42,262 nt of DNA, from positions 1-42,262 of IMG/VR virus record IMGVR_UViG_3300035002_000029; one strand, 5' to 3'. The first letter of the stretch is position 1. Each line of letters opens with the position of its first letter. Below the pieces are notes generated by a model, which saw only the letters and a list, made by a program, of their open reading frames with translations, did not search any database and was not told where the DNA came from. Positions 22,806 through 39,919 of this stretch are shown piece after piece. Origin of the DNA: a virus (taxonomy: Duplodnaviria; Caudoviricetes). The position numbers and the translations under genes were made by a program.

Positions 22806-23555
22806 CTAGGCGACAGAGCGAACCGGTTGCGCCGGATCAGGGCCTGGCAACCCAGTGACAAGCTCGGCGAGCTTCGCGGCTACGACCGTCATGGAGTCCT
22901 CCGCAGTGTCCAAACCGGTCCGAGAGCCGAGCAATGGACTGACATCCCGCAGAGCTTCGTAAGTGGTTTCATGCACAATCGGGATAAGGCGGTCCCGCGC
23001 GAGAAGCGCCGAGAGCTCCTTGTCCGCGATCCCCTCATTCGGAAGCCGGCGAAGCAGGGCCGGTGTGACCAATACAATTCCCACTCGGGAATTCGCCAGA
23101 CCCTTGTCGATCGTGCGGAGCAGGGGAACACCAAGTCCCACATCCTTCTCGCTAAACCAAACTTTGACACCAGCCGCTTCGAGGAGATCGTGCAACTGCT
23201 TAGCGGCACCCTGCCGGTCATCCCATGCATGGCATAGAAATACGTCCCGGCGATCGGGTTGCACCGGCAAGTGCTCGATAGTTTCGCGTACCGGAGTGAG
23301 CGCCAACACTTGAGCTGAGGTGTAGACGAGTGACGAACCTGCACGCTGCCAGCGCGGCCTTGCGCCACCGCTCGACCCGCTGCGGCCACCCCCTGAAGAA
23401 CCGTAAGAGGGGGAAGAATAAGATGGCGAAGAATAAGAGGGCGACGAGTATGATCCGTAACCGCGGTAGCCACCGTAGCGCCCCCCGCACGCAGGACATT
23501 CCGCCGCAGCGGCCGAAGAGCGATGACCCCTTACAGGTGCAGTGCATCTAGCCAT
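22806..23555 (-). CDS. TIR-domain protein with N-terminal Cys/His cluster and Gly/Ser/Tyr linker
   Basis: DVFLCHAWDD, GVKVWFSE, IDKGLANSRVGIVLVTP, KEL (putative catalytic Glu) and LIPIVH motifs. Confidence 0.9.
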   Translation of the reverse strand: MARCTAPVRGHRSSAAAAECPACGGRYGGYRGYGSYSSPSYSSPSYSSPSYGSSGGGRSGSSGGARPRWQRAGSSLVYTSAQVLALTPVRETIEHLPVQPDRRDVFLCHAWDDRQGAAKQLHDLLEAAGVKVWFSEKDVGLGVPLLRTIDKGLANSRVGIVLVTPALLRRLPNEGIADKELSALLARDRLIPIVHETTYEALRDVSPLLGSRTGLDTAEDSMTVVAAKLAELVTGLPGPDPAQPVRSVA

Positions 23556-31830: not shown

Positions 31831-32331
31831 ATGAAGCTCGACCGTTTTTGCACGTTAGACGAATTGCCGATCCCTCAGGATGCGCCCATCACGCAGAAGT
31901 GGACCGGCCAGATGCAGGAAATGGCCGCCCATATTGGACCCTTTTTGACTTTGCTCGTAGTCGACCGGCTCGGCGGGCAGGAAGTCCAAGTGCCGAGTGA
32001 TCCCGAGCGCAACCGGCTCACCGAAGTCATCGGGCCGGACGGGGCCGCGATCATTTCGCGGATATATGGCGGCAACGTGCTGCGCGTGCCGGTCGGGCGC
32101 GCCGCGCTCGACGAGGCGCGCCGCGCAGGCATTATCGCTGCGATCCGCGCCAAGACGATGACGATTGCAGAAGCGGCCCCGATCCTTCGCACCTCGCGCA
32201 GCTATTTGAGCCACCTCGTCAACGCGACCCCCGAAGGCGAGGAGGCCGAGGCGATCAACGTCGGGCGCCTGCGGCGGCTGCGTCACGATCCCCGACAGCT
32301 GAACTTATTCAACTCAACGCCTGAGGAATAG
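31831..32331 (+). CDS. Mor/C-family transcription activator
   Basis: IG....L.VVDRLGGQEVQVP...YGGNVLRVP followed by a C-terminal HTH. Confidence 0.8.
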   Translation: MKLDRFCTLDELPIPQDAPITQKWTGQMQEMAAHIGPFLTLLVVDRLGGQEVQVPSDPERNRLTEVIGPDGAAIISRIYGGNVLRVPVGRAALDEARRAGIIAAIRAKTMTIAEAAPILRTSRSYLSHLVNATPEGEEAEAINVGRLRRLRHDPRQLNLFNSTPEE

Positions 32332-33058: not shown

Positions 33059-33147
33059 TTGACACCATGCCCAGACGGCCTCGCCCTAATGGCAGCAAAC
33101 GACCGATTGCGGACGCCCAAACTTTACCTAACGATCAATTTGAGACG

Positions 33148-33664
33148 TCAATCCAAGTCGCTTTCCAAAAAAGTGATGTTGCGCTGCTGCTCTATCGAGG
33201 CGGCTCTTGCTTCGACGATCGTTCTTAGCCGATCAACGGTAACTTCGTAGAATACATCGGTTGCATTCCAGGTCTCGCCGCCCAAAACTTCGAACGCTCG
33301 CCATTGGCAGCCAAGGGCACCTAACTGCTCCAGCGCCGCTAACAAATCGCGAGGAAAGTCCGAGAAATCTCTGGCGAAGAGTTCTTGCTCCGCGACGGGC
33401 AGACCGTTTTCAAAGCTATGCACGATAGCCGAGAGGGGAAGAGCAAATGTGCGCGATATCAGCATTTTACATTTTGCTGCTTGAGGGCCAAAATCCTCAA
33501 TTGTGAGAGCAATTTTGGCCACAACCCACCTCAAACCTTAAGCGCAAACCAAGATAGCCACCGTTGACGGCGTCTCGAATTCCCGTCCCGGACAACATGC
33601 CATCGATTAGAAACTGGGTCGTCAACGCCTCACTCCATCCGTGCTGTAGCGAATGGAATAACAC
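33148..33664 (-). pseudogene. Cassette-1 gene, possibly frameshifted near 33535
   Basis: Two overlapping ORFs (part of 33497-33727, and 33148-33534) together fill the cassette. Confidence 0.4.
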
Positions 33665-33789
33665 GACTATGTTCGCTTCCCACCCCATTTCGGCCGATCG
33701 CCGCCGGGAATGGTCGAATGACGGCAAACGACCGATTGCGGACGTTCGCCCTCGGCACTAAGCCTATGAGGAAGCGATTAGAGGGAACG

Positions 33790-34206
33790 ATGCGAAGAGT
33801 GGACCTTTCTATACCGTCGGAACGCCTGATTGGTTTTACGATACCTCGCGAAAACAGCTTCCTGGTCTGCGATCACGATGAAGTTTGGCTGGTCAGCGTT
33901 GGCTTTTCGGCTGACGTTGAACCGACCGATCAGGCACCTTACGATATCGCTGCGAGACCGGACTTTGTAGGTTGGGGACGAGAAGATGCTGCTCCAATTA
34001 TGGAAGCGGGAAAAACGAAGATTTCATACGACTTCGACCCCCACGCGCAGATTCTACGTTTACGATATGCGACAGGCGAGACGGAGAGGGAAATCGATTT
34101 TCCACTATTGTCGGGTGACTGGTTCGCTGCGTCATTTTCACAAGAGGGCAATCTTCTTGTAATGGCCGAGCCCTACCATCTCCACCTTTACCAAACCGCC
34201 TTCTAG
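33790..34206 (+). CDS. Cassette-2 hypothetical protein, beta-rich
   Basis: GAGGG RBS before MRRVDLSIP; stop codon abuts a B site. Confidence 0.7.
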   Translation: MRRVDLSIPSERLIGFTIPRENSFLVCDHDEVWLVSVGFSADVEPTDQAPYDIAARPDFVGWGREDAAPIMEAGKTKISYDFDPHAQILRLRYATGETEREIDFPLLSGDWFAASFSQEGNLLVMAEPYHLHLYQTAF

Positions 34207-34297
34207 TATCCGCTTCCCACCCAATTTCAGTCATTCGCCGCGGATGCGGACGCGATGGCCGCTAACGGGCGTTTATGGACGAACCGCCCATTAAATC

Positions 34298-34377
34298 CCG
34301 TTCGTGTCGAGCGAAGTCGAGACACCGTGAAGGCAGGGGCTCCCGATGGGTGTCTCGACTTCGCTCGACACGAACGG
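34298..34377. repeat. REP/MITE-like 29-bp perfect inverted repeat
   Basis: CCGTTCGTGTCGAGCGAAGTCGAGACACC (34298-326) and its exact reverse complement (34349-377). Confidence 0.9.
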
Positions 34378-34504
34378 AAATAGAGGACGGTCTGCTAACC
34401 ACCCCATTTCAGACATTGGGATCGCCCACCGGGGGGGGGCTTATCTGATCGCGTGCAGCTTGCCGGATATCAGCAGGCCGACCCCTTAATCTCTGCATGA
34501 AGTT

Positions 34505-34550: not shown

Positions 34551-34603
34551 GACCCACGCGCGACGCCTTCGGCGTCGCGGATATGCAGTTGCATGGGGGT
34601 TTT

Positions 34604-34969
34604 ATGAGTTCCTTGCTGGCGAAAGCCACTATCGTCTGGCCGATCGCCGCAACGATCACGCCGATCCTGCTCGCGATCGGGCTGCTGTGGCTTCGCACCA
34701 AGTTCGCGGGGGTCGAGGCGCTCGCGACCGCGCAGGCGAAGATCGCGGCGCTCGAAACCGAGGTCGCGCTCCTGAAACTCAAGGTCGCCGAGATCGATGG
34801 CGACATCGATAGCGAGCCGACCCGCGCGCAGGTGATCGACAAGATCGGCAACGCGATCGAGCGGTTGAGCAGGCTCGAAGGCAGCATCGAAGGGATCGAG
34901 CGGCACATGGGCTCGCAGAGCCAGTGGCTGCAGGCGCTCGCGCTGCCGGCATCGGGAGGCGGCCGATGA
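34604..34969 (+). CDS. DUF2730-like membrane/coiled-coil protein
   Basis: N-terminal TM helix, coiled coil, EPTR motif; usual position upstream of Mu gp26/gp27. Confidence 0.7.
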   Translation: MSSLLAKATIVWPIAATITPILLAIGLLWLRTKFAGVEALATAQAKIAALETEVALLKLKVAEIDGDIDSEPTRAQVIDKIGNAIERLSRLEGSIEGIERHMGSQSQWLQALALPASGGGR

Positions 34970-36210: not shown

Positions 36211-37871
36211 CCTCCGAGGTGCCGTCGATCCTGCTGTCCTATCAGCAGGAAACGATCGAGCTTTCCGAACAGCACGACTTCCTTGTGGTCGAAAAGTCGC
36301 GGCGTATCGGCCTGTCCTATGGCGTTTCGCCTCTGGCAGTCCTCGCCGCGTCGCTCGCGAACGGCGCTCAGAACGTCTATTACGTCGGCTACAACCTCGA
36401 CATGGCGCGCGAGTTCATCGGCTATTGCGCCGACTTCGCCACCGCCTTTGAAGAGGTCCGCGTCTCGCTCCCGAGCGAGGAGGTCGATCTCGTCGTTCGC
36501 CGCGAGGATGGCAGCTATCTCAACGCCGAGGGCAATGTCCTCGTCGACGCTCGCGATGGCGACTATCACGATGACGTCGTTGTCCGCGAGGCGCAGGGTG
36601 GCTTCCTGATCAAGGGCGAGGCCGGGAAGTCGGTCAAGGCGTTCCGGGTCGACTTTGCGTCAGGCAAGGCCGTGGTGGCGCTGCCCTCCAGCCCGCGATC
36701 GGTGCGCGGTAAGCAGGGCATCTTCATTATCGATGAAGCGGCATTTCACGATAATCTGGAGGAGCTGATCAAGGCGATCCTCGCCGCCCTCATGTGGGGC
36801 GGACGCGTGATCGTCATCTCGACCCATGACGGCACCGACAATTTCTTCAACACGCTGGTCGAAGAGATCCGCACGGGTAAACGCGGCGGACATGTCCAGC
36901 GCATCACCCTCAAAGATGCGCTCGCCGCGGGGCTCTATCAGCGCATCTGCCTTGTCCAGGGCAAGGAATGGTCGCCGGAGGCTGAAGCCAAATGGGAGGC
37001 TGATCTCCGCAGGAAATATGGCAGCGCCGCCGACGAGGAGCTGGACGTCATCCCCGCCCGAGGAACGGGCACCTATCTGGCACGCGCAACCATCCTCGAA
37101 GCGATGTCGAAGGAGCTGCCCGTCGTTCGCCTCGCGTGTCCCGATGGGTTCGAGCGCTGGGGGGAAAAGCCGCGCCGCTCATGGCTGACGGACTTTCTCG
37201 AAGACGAGGTCAAGCCTTGGCTCGATGCCTTCAATCCTACGCGCCGGACCTTCATGGGGCAGGACTTCGCGCGCAGCGGTGACGTCTCGCCGATCATGTT
37301 CGGCCAGCATGACGAGATGATGCGGCTGCACGCCCGCCTGACGCTGGAGATGCGCAATGTGCCCTTCTCCGATCAGGAGTTCGTCGTCGAGTGGCTGATC
37401 GATCGCGTCCCGCATTTCGCAGGCGGCAAGATGGACGGGCGCGGCAATGGCTCGGCGCTCGCTGAGAAAATGCAGCAGCTCTACGGCTTCGACGTGATCG
37501 AGGCCGTGATGGCCACCGACAAGACCTACCTCCAATATATGCCCCTGCTCAAATCGGGGATCGAGGACCGCACATTTATCATCCCCTACGACGAAGGCGT
37601 CCTCGACGACTTCCGCATGATCAAGCAGGTGCGCGGCATCCCCAAGATCCCAGAGCGTCCCGCCACCGCGCGAGAGGACGGCAAGATCGTGAAGCGCCAC
37701 GGCGACACCGCGATCGCCGGCATGCACCTCGTCGCTGCCGCCAACGAGGATCCGGGCGACATCGAGTTCGAAGGGACCGGCGCACGCGACAGCACATCCG
37801 GCGAGTTCGAGATCACCGACCGCGGCTTCGGCTCCGTCACTCGCCATTCATCGGAAGGATTTGAGCTATGA
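36198..37871 (+). CDS. Large terminase (Mu gp28-like)
   Basis: LLSYQ, EKSRRIGLS, RGKQG..IIDEAAFH, ISTHDG, GQDFARSGD and HGDTAIA motifs. Confidence 0.95.
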   Translation: MPDVTSEVPSILLSYQQETIELSEQHDFLVVEKSRRIGLSYGVSPLAVLAASLANGAQNVYYVGYNLDMAREFIGYCADFATAFEEVRVSLPSEEVDLVVRREDGSYLNAEGNVLVDARDGDYHDDVVVREAQGGFLIKGEAGKSVKAFRVDFASGKAVVALPSSPRSVRGKQGIFIIDEAAFHDNLEELIKAILAALMWGGRVIVISTHDGTDNFFNTLVEEIRTGKRGGHVQRITLKDALAAGLYQRICLVQGKEWSPEAEAKWEADLRRKYGSAADEELDVIPARGTGTYLARATILEAMSKELPVVRLACPDGFERWGEKPRRSWLTDFLEDEVKPWLDAFNPTRRTFMGQDFARSGDVSPIMFGQHDEMMRLHARLTLEMRNVPFSDQEFVVEWLIDRVPHFAGGKMDGRGNGSALAEKMQQLYGFDVIEAVMATDKTYLQYMPLLKSGIEDRTFIIPYDEGVLDDFRMIKQVRGIPKIPERPATAREDGKIVKRHGDTAIAGMHLVAAANEDPGDIEFEGTGARDSTSGEFEITDRGFGSVTRHSSEGFEL

Positions 37872-39919
37872 TCGCTCCCACCAGCAAGCGCAGCCGCGCT
37901 GCTGCTCCTCGCGCAACCAAGGCCGAACTCTTCGCCGAGATCGCATCGACGGCGGATGGCAAGGATATCACGCGCCCTTTCCTCACCGGCCTGCAGGAGC
38001 CCCGCGATCCCCGGCTGCGCGGCGCGGTCGATTGGGGTGTCTATGATCGCATCCTGCAGGACGATCAGGTCTACTCCACGCTCCAGCAGCGCTTCCTCGC
38101 CGTCATTTCGCGCAACTGGAGCGTGGTTCCCGGAGATGACAAGGATCCGCGATCGGTCGAGGCCTCCGATCGTTTCGCCGACACCGTCGCGCGGATTGGC
38201 TGGGATCGCATCACGCAAAAGATGCTCTATGCGATCCCCAACGGCATCGCGGTGGCAGAGGTTATGTGGGCCGAGCGCGATGGCCTGATCGATATCGACA
38301 GGATCAAGGTTCGCCACGCGCGCCGTTTCCGTTTCGATGCTGAGAACCGGCTCCGCCTCCTGACTTCGGTCGGTGGCCTCGGCACGATCATGCCCGACCG
38401 CAAGTTCTGGGTCTTCACAATGGGCGGCTCGGACGATGACGAGCGATACGGCCGCGGCCTCGCCGAATGGCTCTATTGGCCCACGCTCTTCAAGCGCAAC
38501 GGCATCCGCTTTTGGAATATCTTCCTCGACAAGTTCGGCGCCCCGACCGCTGTGGGCAAATATCGCCCCGGCACGCCCAAGAGCGAGCAGAAGAAGCTGT
38601 TGGCAGCGCTGCAGGCCATCACCACCGACAGCGGCATCATCCTTCCCGAGGGCATGGCAGTGACGCTGCTGGAAGCCGTGCGCTCGGGCGGCGGTGATCA
38701 CGACAAGATGGTCCGTTACATGGACGAGGCGATCGCCAAGATCGTGCTGTCCCAGACGATGACCACGCAGGACGGCGCGAGCCTCAGTCAGGCGCAGGTC
38801 CACCAAGGCGTCAAGATGGAGGTCGTTTCGTCCGACGCCGACCTGCAGTGCGACAGCTTCAATGAAACCGTCGCCCGTTGGTGGACCGACCTCAACTACG
38901 GCCATGACGTGGCCAGCCCGCGCGTCACGCGCGAGGTCGAGGAGGAAGAGGACACCCAGGCGCAGGCGGAGACCGATACCGAGCTTGAAAAGCAGGGCTG
39001 GGTTCGCACGCCCGAGAGCTTCCGGGACGTCTATGGCGATGGTTTCGTCCGCAAGGAAAAGGCGGCGGAGCCGGACGAAGGCGCCGATGGCGACCGCTCG
39101 GACGTCGCCGATCCCGACAAGGGCGACGAAGGCGCGAACGACAACGATCTGCAGGATCCGAACGTCAACGATCGCACCGCCAGTTTCGCGGCCGACGATC
39201 CGCGCCCGCTCTATGTCTGCCGTCCGCTCGTCAATGCCGACGAACTGATTGCCTGGGCTCGCGAGCAGGGCTTCAAATCGGTCATCCCCGCCGAGGAGAT
39301 GCACGTCACTGTCACCTATTCCAAGCGCCCGGTGAACTGGCTCAAGATGGGCGGCTTTTGGGGATGGGGGCCGGATACTTCCGACCATCTCGTCCCGATG
39401 GGCGGCCCGCGGATCGTCGAGGCGATCGGCGATCAGGGCGCCGTCGCGCTGCACTTCGCCTCTGGTCACCTTTACCAGCGCAATCGCGAGATGCGCGATG
39501 CCGGTGCGAGCTGGGATTACGCGGATTATATGCCGCACGTCACGCTCACCTACGACGCTGGCGACGTCGACCTGTCGAAGGTCACGCCGTATCGCGGCGA
39601 GTTGCGCTTCGGCCCCGAGATGTTCGAGCCGATCCAAACCGATTGGGAAAAGGACGTCGCCGAGGCCAGCTTCGCCGAGGGCGACATCCCCGACGCCCAG
39701 GAGGACAAGCTCGTCGACGATCTGATCGCTCGCGATGGCTACCGCGCCACGCGCGCCCTCACCGATCCGATGCTCGATGCCATCCGCAGCGCCAAAACCG
39801 CCGCCGAGCTGATAGCCGCACTCAACGCTGGCGTCGGCGACGAGGCGCCGATCGCCGCCGACCTCGAACGTGCCGGCCTCGCGGCAGCCCTAGACGCTGG
39901 AGAAGGCGACGATGGCTGA
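37868..39919 (+). CDS. Portal protein (Mu gp29/DUF935) with an inserted 2H phosphoesterase (Acb1-like) domain
   Basis: YGRGL..LYWP..FKR....FW..FLDKFG.P and IAKIVLSQTMTT motifs; HVT motifs at 39302 and 39536. Confidence 0.9.
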   Translation: MIAPTSKRSRAAAPRATKAELFAEIASTADGKDITRPFLTGLQEPRDPRLRGAVDWGVYDRILQDDQVYSTLQQRFLAVISRNWSVVPGDDKDPRSVEASDRFADTVARIGWDRITQKMLYAIPNGIAVAEVMWAERDGLIDIDRIKVRHARRFRFDAENRLRLLTSVGGLGTIMPDRKFWVFTMGGSDDDERYGRGLAEWLYWPTLFKRNGIRFWNIFLDKFGAPTAVGKYRPGTPKSEQKKLLAALQAITTDSGIILPEGMAVTLLEAVRSGGGDHDKMVRYMDEAIAKIVLSQTMTTQDGASLSQAQVHQGVKMEVVSSDADLQCDSFNETVARWWTDLNYGHDVASPRVTREVEEEEDTQAQAETDTELEKQGWVRTPESFRDVYGDGFVRKEKAAEPDEGADGDRSDVADPDKGDEGANDNDLQDPNVNDRTASFAADDPRPLYVCRPLVNADELIAWAREQGFKSVIPAEEMHVTVTYSKRPVNWLKMGGFWGWGPDTSDHLVPMGGPRIVEAIGDQGAVALHFASGHLYQRNREMRDAGASWDYADYMPHVTLTYDAGDVDLSKVTPYRGELRFGPEMFEPIQTDWEKDVAEASFAEGDIPDAQEDKLVDDLIARDGYRATRALTDPMLDAIRSAKTAAELIAALNAGVGDEAPIAADLERAGLAAALDAGEGDDG

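Follow-up and report, generated by a model that had tools for sequence, protein, structure and literature searches.

Engineered recombinase-mediated cassette exchange uses heterospecific lox or FRT sites, the Cre and Flp sites having a 13-8-13 layout; two sites that do not cross-react flank the cargo, and a double crossover swaps it. Among natural elements, inverted repeats flanking the Z/fun hotspot of phage P2 were reportedly described by Nilsson, Karlsson and Haggard-Ljungquist in 2004. The mechanism at P2/P4 hotspots is left open in the part of PMC9122126 that was available, and the available part of PMC13586616 holds no passage with the term 'inverted repeat'. The dif modules of Acinetobacter plasmids are bounded by pdif sites and depend on XerC/XerD (PMC13141974, PMC9455709), at least in the accessible text of these sources. 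For 243 alphaproteobacterial genomes, PMC4889954 reports neither integrons nor In0 elements nor CALINs, and calls this absence puzzling.

The window, by which we mean the whole 42,262-nucleotide stretch of phage DNA analysed here, contains six sites of two types, A and B, which frame three cargos in the order A-cargo-B, with a 20-bp linker between successive units (Table 1). The six sites, their order and both linkers lie where an earlier note, made from the sequence by itself, had placed them, A3 being a degenerate variant. When scored with strict profiles from whose build the window's own six sites had been left out, A1 and A2 reached 41.0 and 43.7 and B1, B2 and B3 reached 33.9, 27.4 and 28.7, the best score over 100 whole-window shuffles being 20.3 for the A profile and 18.6 for the B profile; elsewhere in the 42 kb nothing rose above 3 except A1 and A2 read in reverse. 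A3 scores 2.8 on the strict profile and about 15 on a looser one, which is within chance if it is taken alone, and we accept it because its position fits and because three chromosomal homologues of unit 3 have the same variant centre. The inner arms of A and B are reverse complements of each other, and variants with an 8-bp core occur. The arm-core-arm organisation read by the earlier note stands, while its division into 10-8-10 and 10-9-10 gives way to 11-6-11 for A and 11-7-11 for B, as the sharing between copies begins at the second base of the 8-bp core. A search of Rfam matched no family.

Table 1. Features of the array and of the variable locus that holds it, in window coordinates.
Feature	Position	Strand	GC	Remarks
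Late transcriptional activator gene (phrog_836)	31831..32331	+		Left anchor of variable locus
Orphan ORF, 205 aa	32441..33058	+		Within variable locus; no site on its left
Site A1	33089..33116	+		Outer arm, centre CGACCG (33100-33105), inner arm towards cargo; profile match
Cargo 1	33117..33668		0.51	Minus-strand ORF of 124-128 aa (33148-33534); no family
Site B1	33669..33697	+		Inner arm, centre CCACCCC, outer arm; profile match
Linker 1, 20 bp	33698..33717	+		Between B1 and A2
Site A2	33718..33745	+		Profile match
Cargo 2	33746..34205	+	0.52	ORF 33790-34206, 138 aa, no family
Site B2	34206..34234	+		Cargo 2 stop codon ends on first base of B2
Linker 2, 20 bp	34235..34254	+		Between B2 and A3
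Site A3	34255..34282	+		Variant centre CGGGCG, degenerate
Cargo 3	34283..34387	.		REP-like hairpin doublet, arms 34298-34326 and 34349-34377
Site B3	34388..34416	+		Profile match
First conserved late-region gene	34583..34969	+		Right anchor of variable locus

The cargos are unrelated to one another (a minus-strand ORF, a plus-strand ORF and a REP-like palindrome) and one stop codon does meet its site, at B2, both as first read. Cargos 1 and 2 gave no match in Pfam, PHROG, NCBIfam or PADLOC and fall only into unnamed Atlas clusters, and nothing supports an anti-phage role for either. The cargo 2 ORF has 25 database matches, itself counted, and the DNA of cargo 1 was found in 0 of 136 genomes of the genus Sphingopyxis. 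The first 45 bp or so past A2 (33746-33790) match the start of another, chromosomal unit (L224), and units can therefore be internal mosaics. Cargo 3 is a perfect 29-bp inverted repeat (34298-34377) with a fold z of -10; it is REP-like but has been placed in no family.

The record to which the window belongs is the provirus of a Mu-like phage, about 84% complete, and the 30 ORFs scanned include MuA, a MuB-like ATPase, GemA, gp27 and the Mu portal and F proteins. It encodes a MuA-type DDE transposase; searches of this roughly 84%-complete record for a recombinase of the tyrosine or serine resolvase type came back empty, as did one for PF00589, which agrees with the earlier statement that the window has no recombinase. 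Seven distinct relatives cover the array locus. Four of them (L041 with its near-duplicates L042 and L051, L052, L053 and L054) have one conserved small ORF there and no sites, L055 has nothing, L001 has an unrelated insert without sites, and L002 has an array of three A-cargo-B units that points the other way, carries different cargos and has linkers of 19 and 20 bp. As one sister carries another array and the remaining six have no sites at the locus, the array was acquired late, at a spot that varies between relatives and has received at least two forms of it, and the description of the spot as a phage hotspot is upheld. A further sequence, L050, is 100% identical to the window and provides no independent support. 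Directly against A1, positions 33067-33087 read MPRRPRP, resembling the start of the ancestral ORF in L041; as a remnant of an ancestral phage ORF (RRPRP) this stretch was set aside, its E value of 1.2 being too weak for use. Elsewhere in the window, positions 37868-39919 (plus strand) encode a fusion of a Mu-type portal protein (PF06074) with an anti-CBASS Acb1 domain (PF23474, E 2e-38), a ThsB-like TIR gene (22806-23555, minus strand; PADLOC E 9e-124) lies beside the repressor, and a second low-GC accessory patch at about 19.5-21.5 kb, with a DUF4238 gene, has no A or B site.

The A and B sites belong to a repeat family that is common in sphingomonads. The exact 20-base A motif was found in 36 stretches of a species-genome collection, mostly from Sphingomonadaceae, and a degenerate A pattern in 93 of the 136 Sphingopyxis-genus genomes, the reversed control giving 0 in all. 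All over the chromosome of genome G039, A and B sites share an orientation and are separated by a few hundred bases, some as lone pairs and some in arrays. Among non-redundant neighbouring pairs, A then B in the same orientation was the commonest class (58), followed by two successive A sites without a B between them (43). In 18 pairs a B preceded an A by no more than 60 bp, 11 pairs consisted of successive B sites (with 1 more at short distance), 5 were back-to-back A sites and 14 fell into other classes, counts that come from loci gathered by site patterns, repeated units included, and that describe the collection and not the genomes. The 20-bp spacing, the conservation of which the earlier note had asked about, recurs exactly in 14 of the 18 short B-to-A joints. 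By a rough mechanical classification, 44 of the 58 A-to-B units have one ORF (30 forward, 14 reverse), 12 have hairpins and 2 have neither, with most units measuring 95 to 650 bp. The strict B-20-A doublet pattern gave 0 stretches in the genome contig collection and was present in 1/136 genus genomes, and single sites therefore far outnumber intact doublets; when plasmids and cultured phages were searched with the joint by BLAST, only chance-level matches came up. Over 72 bp the window's B1-linker-A2 joint has 97% identity with a joint on a chromosome, in L059, the cargos there being unrelated, and one linker sequence was found in two arrays of G039. REP-like hairpin families stand alone between A and B at nine chromosomal loci (L072, L076, L087, L221, L222, L223, L228, L174 and L061), and the A centre CGGGCG recurs with hairpin cargo. 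Nor is the system specific to phage: the majority of sites are chromosomal, and many of these belong to lone A-cargo-B units.

Aligned copies place the borders of the mobile unit at the centre of A and the centre of B, the outer arms and the 20-bp linker staying with the locus. In G039 one 377-bp unit is present at two places with 100% identity, which extends from the last base of the A outer arm to the end of the B centre; the outer arms and flanks of the two copies differ, though both are consensus-like. Unit 1 of phage L002 and a chromosomal unit in G068 (L206) are 99% identical over 405 bp, ending inside the B centre, and a second homologue of that unit (L207, 92%) has kept A and lost B. 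Among nine more diverged homologues of two G039 units, similarity extends in 7 from A as far as B or into it, and in 2 (L215, L217) it is confined to the gene. Unit 3 of the window (A-hairpin-B) has three chromosomal homologues (L174, L061, L223), aligned from A centre to B centre. The picture is not a simple one throughout, as two homologues of cargo 2 (L056 in G108, flagged as unpublished, and L057; 70-73% identity) lie at a locus without scoring sites. Unit 1 of the window was recovered in other contexts from 5/6 public sequencing runs, with 0 to 6 differences, the sixth run holding the whole stretch and perhaps being its source. Where contigs reach that far these matches start at A1 (one at 33100, the second core base) and their left flanks differ, A1 being the left border of the segment in common; in all five runs the match stops at 33556. 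In four of the five, an identical 26-bp end comes next and leads into the beginning of a B-like arm; the window has 33557-33668 in place of that end, and its copy therefore has a rearranged right end of 112 bp. Sharing between the near-identical units begins in the A core and stops in the B core, which bears out both the proposal that the sites are cassette borders and the expectation that cargo boundaries in relatives coincide with them. At the level of sequence, these alignments establish that units are common to phage and chromosome. Logan contigs, which drop rare forms, gave no circle junction or excised array form that could be separated from repeats elsewhere.

Frames also persist in the chromosome and change cargo, as is seen where same-spot frames hold different cargos. 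At the L123 spot, B is at the same position in 4/4 compared relatives with four different cargos, A being intact in place in one relative and decayed in two. At the L115 spot B is kept by score in 4/5 relatives, and at the L114 spot units are present in 0/5 relatives, three of which are flush-empty without any site. The empty orthologous loci without any site include L229, L230 and L233, as well as L065 and L067; at the L118 locus the search for an empty site found the flank in 0/5 genomes. Downstream of rplQ, sites are present in 9/30 genomes, all in one orientation, and the empty loci are without any site; L063 and L074 (unpublished genomes G109 and G108, respectively), both among the 30, have no scoring site, and hairpin units are common at this locus. 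Lone sites downstream of rplQ (L077, L085) look, by eye, like an A outer arm followed by an A centre and a B outer arm; it is possible that they are empty or deleted frames.

The best candidate for the enzyme, and a well-supported one, is a putative tyrosine recombinase of 210 aa that would be encoded outside the phage; it was not found in the record, in line with the earlier suggestion of an enzyme supplied in trans. The protein aligns to the catalytic domain of XerD only (E 4e-7), keeps the R, K, HxxR, H and Y motifs, and is present in 37/136 genomes of the genus and 70/301 of the family. Within 150 bp past its stop codon a B site is found by profile at 15/36 loci (shuffle rate 0.00025) and the B core word past the stop at 22/36 (background 2.2%), and a third centre, CGGCCM, is found upstream of the gene at 19/34 loci (background 1.4%), the 36 loci including close kin and not being independent. 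The gene is linked to B and to the CGGCCM centre, not to A. These B-site counts are for the L149 subfamily, in which the B site past the stop is reversed and usually lies 66-70 bp from it. As B lies on the 3' side of the gene, the gene occupies the place of the linker, on the outer side of B. At L124-L144 and L176-L205 a CGGCCM-type site and an extra upstream arm border the recombinase gene, and homology between recombinase loci breaks right after the CGGCCM centre. On an Escherichia coli plasmid, a homologue of 52% identity has sites on its two sides whose arms and centres are those found next to P2 fun(Z).

Co-occurrence of the candidate with the sites is weak, A sites being present in 30/37 genomes with the recombinase and in 63/99 without it (Fisher p = 0.06). 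At E <= 1e-40 the recombinase was not found in 63 of the 93 A-bearing genomes, and G003 has 14 A sites and no recombinase match. In Sphingopyxis the most frequent subfamily, represented by 21 loci that are 92-100% identical to the L098 copy, lacks A and B sites in its neighbourhood, which holds only related arms with another centre. The copy at L098:1374-2004 in G039 is frameshifted near its start, and a second copy, L100, is present in the same genome. A 168-aa part of the L098 copy scores 21 bits against TIGR02249, used as the IntI model, the cut-off of which is 265 bits. When the first 38 site loci were scanned for tyrosine recombinase motifs, nothing credible emerged, and among 20 PF00589 loci in G039 and G003 a strong A site lies near L096 only; L096 was rejected as a site-linked enzyme and is read as a cargo hotspot beside a prophage integrase. 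The host dif-like site ATAATATATATTATGTTAA occurs once per genome in G039 and G003, as does a control pattern, and shares nothing with the GC-rich A/B arms. Host XerC/D, raised in the earlier note as an enzyme to be tried, is unlikely because the sites do not resemble host dif.

We propose a model in which A and B frame exchangeable units and the cargo would be swapped by A x A plus B x B crossovers, probably via the 210-residue tyrosine recombinase acting in trans, and we put its probability at about 0.57. Points against it are the A-bearing genomes in which the recombinase was not found, the linkage of its gene to B and not to A, the site-free empty loci, the cargo 2 homologues at a locus without scoring sites and the A-to-A pairs with no B between them. 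A and B have different centres and thereby would not recombine with each other. Exchange would proceed via a cointegrate, formed when two DNA molecules join, with resolution at the second site. This two-step cointegrate route is the one described for the exchange of single dif modules in the accessible text of PMC13141974. Between units, the linker and the recombinase gene may share an 'outer-arm' position, and the candidate recombinase would either act in trans or pass through on mobile DNA. We consider the sequence evidence for site-precise exchange strong, and the data suggest that hairpins too may spread as cassettes. A wider view, which we hold tentatively and rate a little below even odds, is that Alphaproteobacteria, in which integrons are reported to be lacking, have in their place a distributed cassette system of many chromosomal and prophage slots. 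Each slot would be framed by two sites that do not cross-react, and a mobile mini tyrosine recombinase would trade single genes between phage and chromosome and carry REP hairpins as well; the same natural, proteobacteria-wide system would load the anti-phage hotspot of P2 in enterobacteria.

The foremost alternative is that A and B are the attL and attR of single-unit circles inserted, in the manner of lambda, into a one-site target with tolerance of the centre mismatch. A centre-to-centre mobile unit and outer arms owned by the locus fit this equally, the centres of A and B differ at only one or two positions, and the lone hybrid-looking sites at the rplQ locus, which were recognised by eye and carry no statistics, are what it would leave; however, centres are fixed by type in the collected sites (partly a product of pattern selection), no target site is present in the empty orthologous loci, and cargos replace each other within one frame, and we regard it as unlikely. 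The sites might instead be conserved boundaries for exchange by RecA or by phage single-strand annealing, with the recombinase gene as a passenger. The identity of about 18 bp between donor and recipient at each end, the majority of site-bearing genomes without a detectable recombinase copy and the rearrangement of the right end of window unit 1 away from any site are consistent with this, yet a palindromic arm-centre-arm geometry, a fixed 20-bp linker and a fixed distance of B from the recombinase stop would be unexpected, and breakpoints fall at the centres despite divergent outer arms, which makes such a process about as unlikely.

The earlier note had compared the array with an integron. 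The ends of attC sites carry the motifs RYYYAAC and GTTRRRY, and these are absent inside all six sites on both strands; the B-20-A joints form no attC-like hairpin, with fold z values against shuffles of 0.29 to 0.78 on either strand. The A/B system is not an integron, and an integron-like mechanism is not supported, the linker moreover staying behind when cargo moves; the remark that the sites resemble neither attC nor dif agrees with these results and with the GC-rich arms, unlike host dif. The likeness to integrons and CALINs lies in the arrays of small, mostly single-ORF, low-GC units of unassigned function, in their being common to replicons and in the arrays that have no local enzyme; in contrast, here there are two site types per unit, ORFs in either direction, no IntI and a linker that stays. 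Very unlikely, as a general route, are circles of A-cargo-B-linker excised by A x A (or B x B) and re-inserted at another A. They would account for arrays in which all units point one way and the A centres are identical (window, L002, L058, L059) and for the linker found twice in G039, and may serve as an occasional route of gain or loss alongside exchange, but the linker and the B outer arm are not common to near-identical pairs, and many chromosomal units stand alone. REP-based mosaic repeats go by the names BIME and RIME. That A and B are non-recombining motifs of such a repeat, spread by REP-associated transposases, is highly improbable, as the hairpin-only units (about 12 of the 58 in the rough classification, and common at rplQ) that speak for it are set against about 44 of the 58 that have an ORF and no hairpin, ORF-only units that move with exact borders, the lack of an Rfam family and a REP survey that gives no description of these flanks in the part of PMC3733652 available.

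Judged from sequence, the A/B system works like the dif modules of Acinetobacter, and its sites are not dif. As far as the accessible parts of the sources describe those modules, the two have in common sites of about 28 bp built of arm, spacer and arm, in which one type of arm points towards the module from either end, and single modules that swap between matching spacers, to which the cointegrate model fits, with a host enzyme in trans; the 11-6-11 geometry is that of A, B being 11-7-11. Within the same accessible parts, dif modules have variable spacers and are joined by one shared site, whereas here there are few fixed centre types and units are joined by a doublet of B, 20 bp and A. Furthermore, the units described here lie in chromosomes and prophages, and the candidate enzyme is one 210-aa protein corresponding to the XerD catalytic domain only. 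Within the site family that was first described next to P2 Z/fun, the A/B sites probably form the branch found in Alphaproteobacteria. A similar arm motif and site length are seen by eye beside fun(Z) in the P2 record, and the same recombinase family lies between such sites on the E. coli plasmid; the centres differ (CTGTGCCA and CTCGCTCA versus ACGACCGA and CCCACCCCA), and the P2 right site, the only one scored in register, scores weakly on the sphingomonad arm profile (4.5 and -3.9). Unlike in P2, the sites here lie in a Mu-like phage of Alphaproteobacteria, in arrays whose units are joined by 20-bp linkers and include a REP cargo. The two non-cross-reacting sites and the double crossover that would swap the cargo are also those of engineered cassette exchange, from which the A/B system differs in being natural and in having an enzyme that is a candidate. 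In the literature searched, at the level of listings and abstracts and mostly open-access, no description of the A/B sites or of the recombinase's role came up.

For engineering, a compact recombinase that comes with heterospecific sites of its own would be of use. The substrates are short and the enzyme is small. The proposed exchange provides a testable mechanism for the turnover of accessory genes at exact borders in phage hotspots and a route by which REP hairpins may spread as cargo. Finally, it offers a testable answer to the question of what replaces integrons in Alphaproteobacteria.
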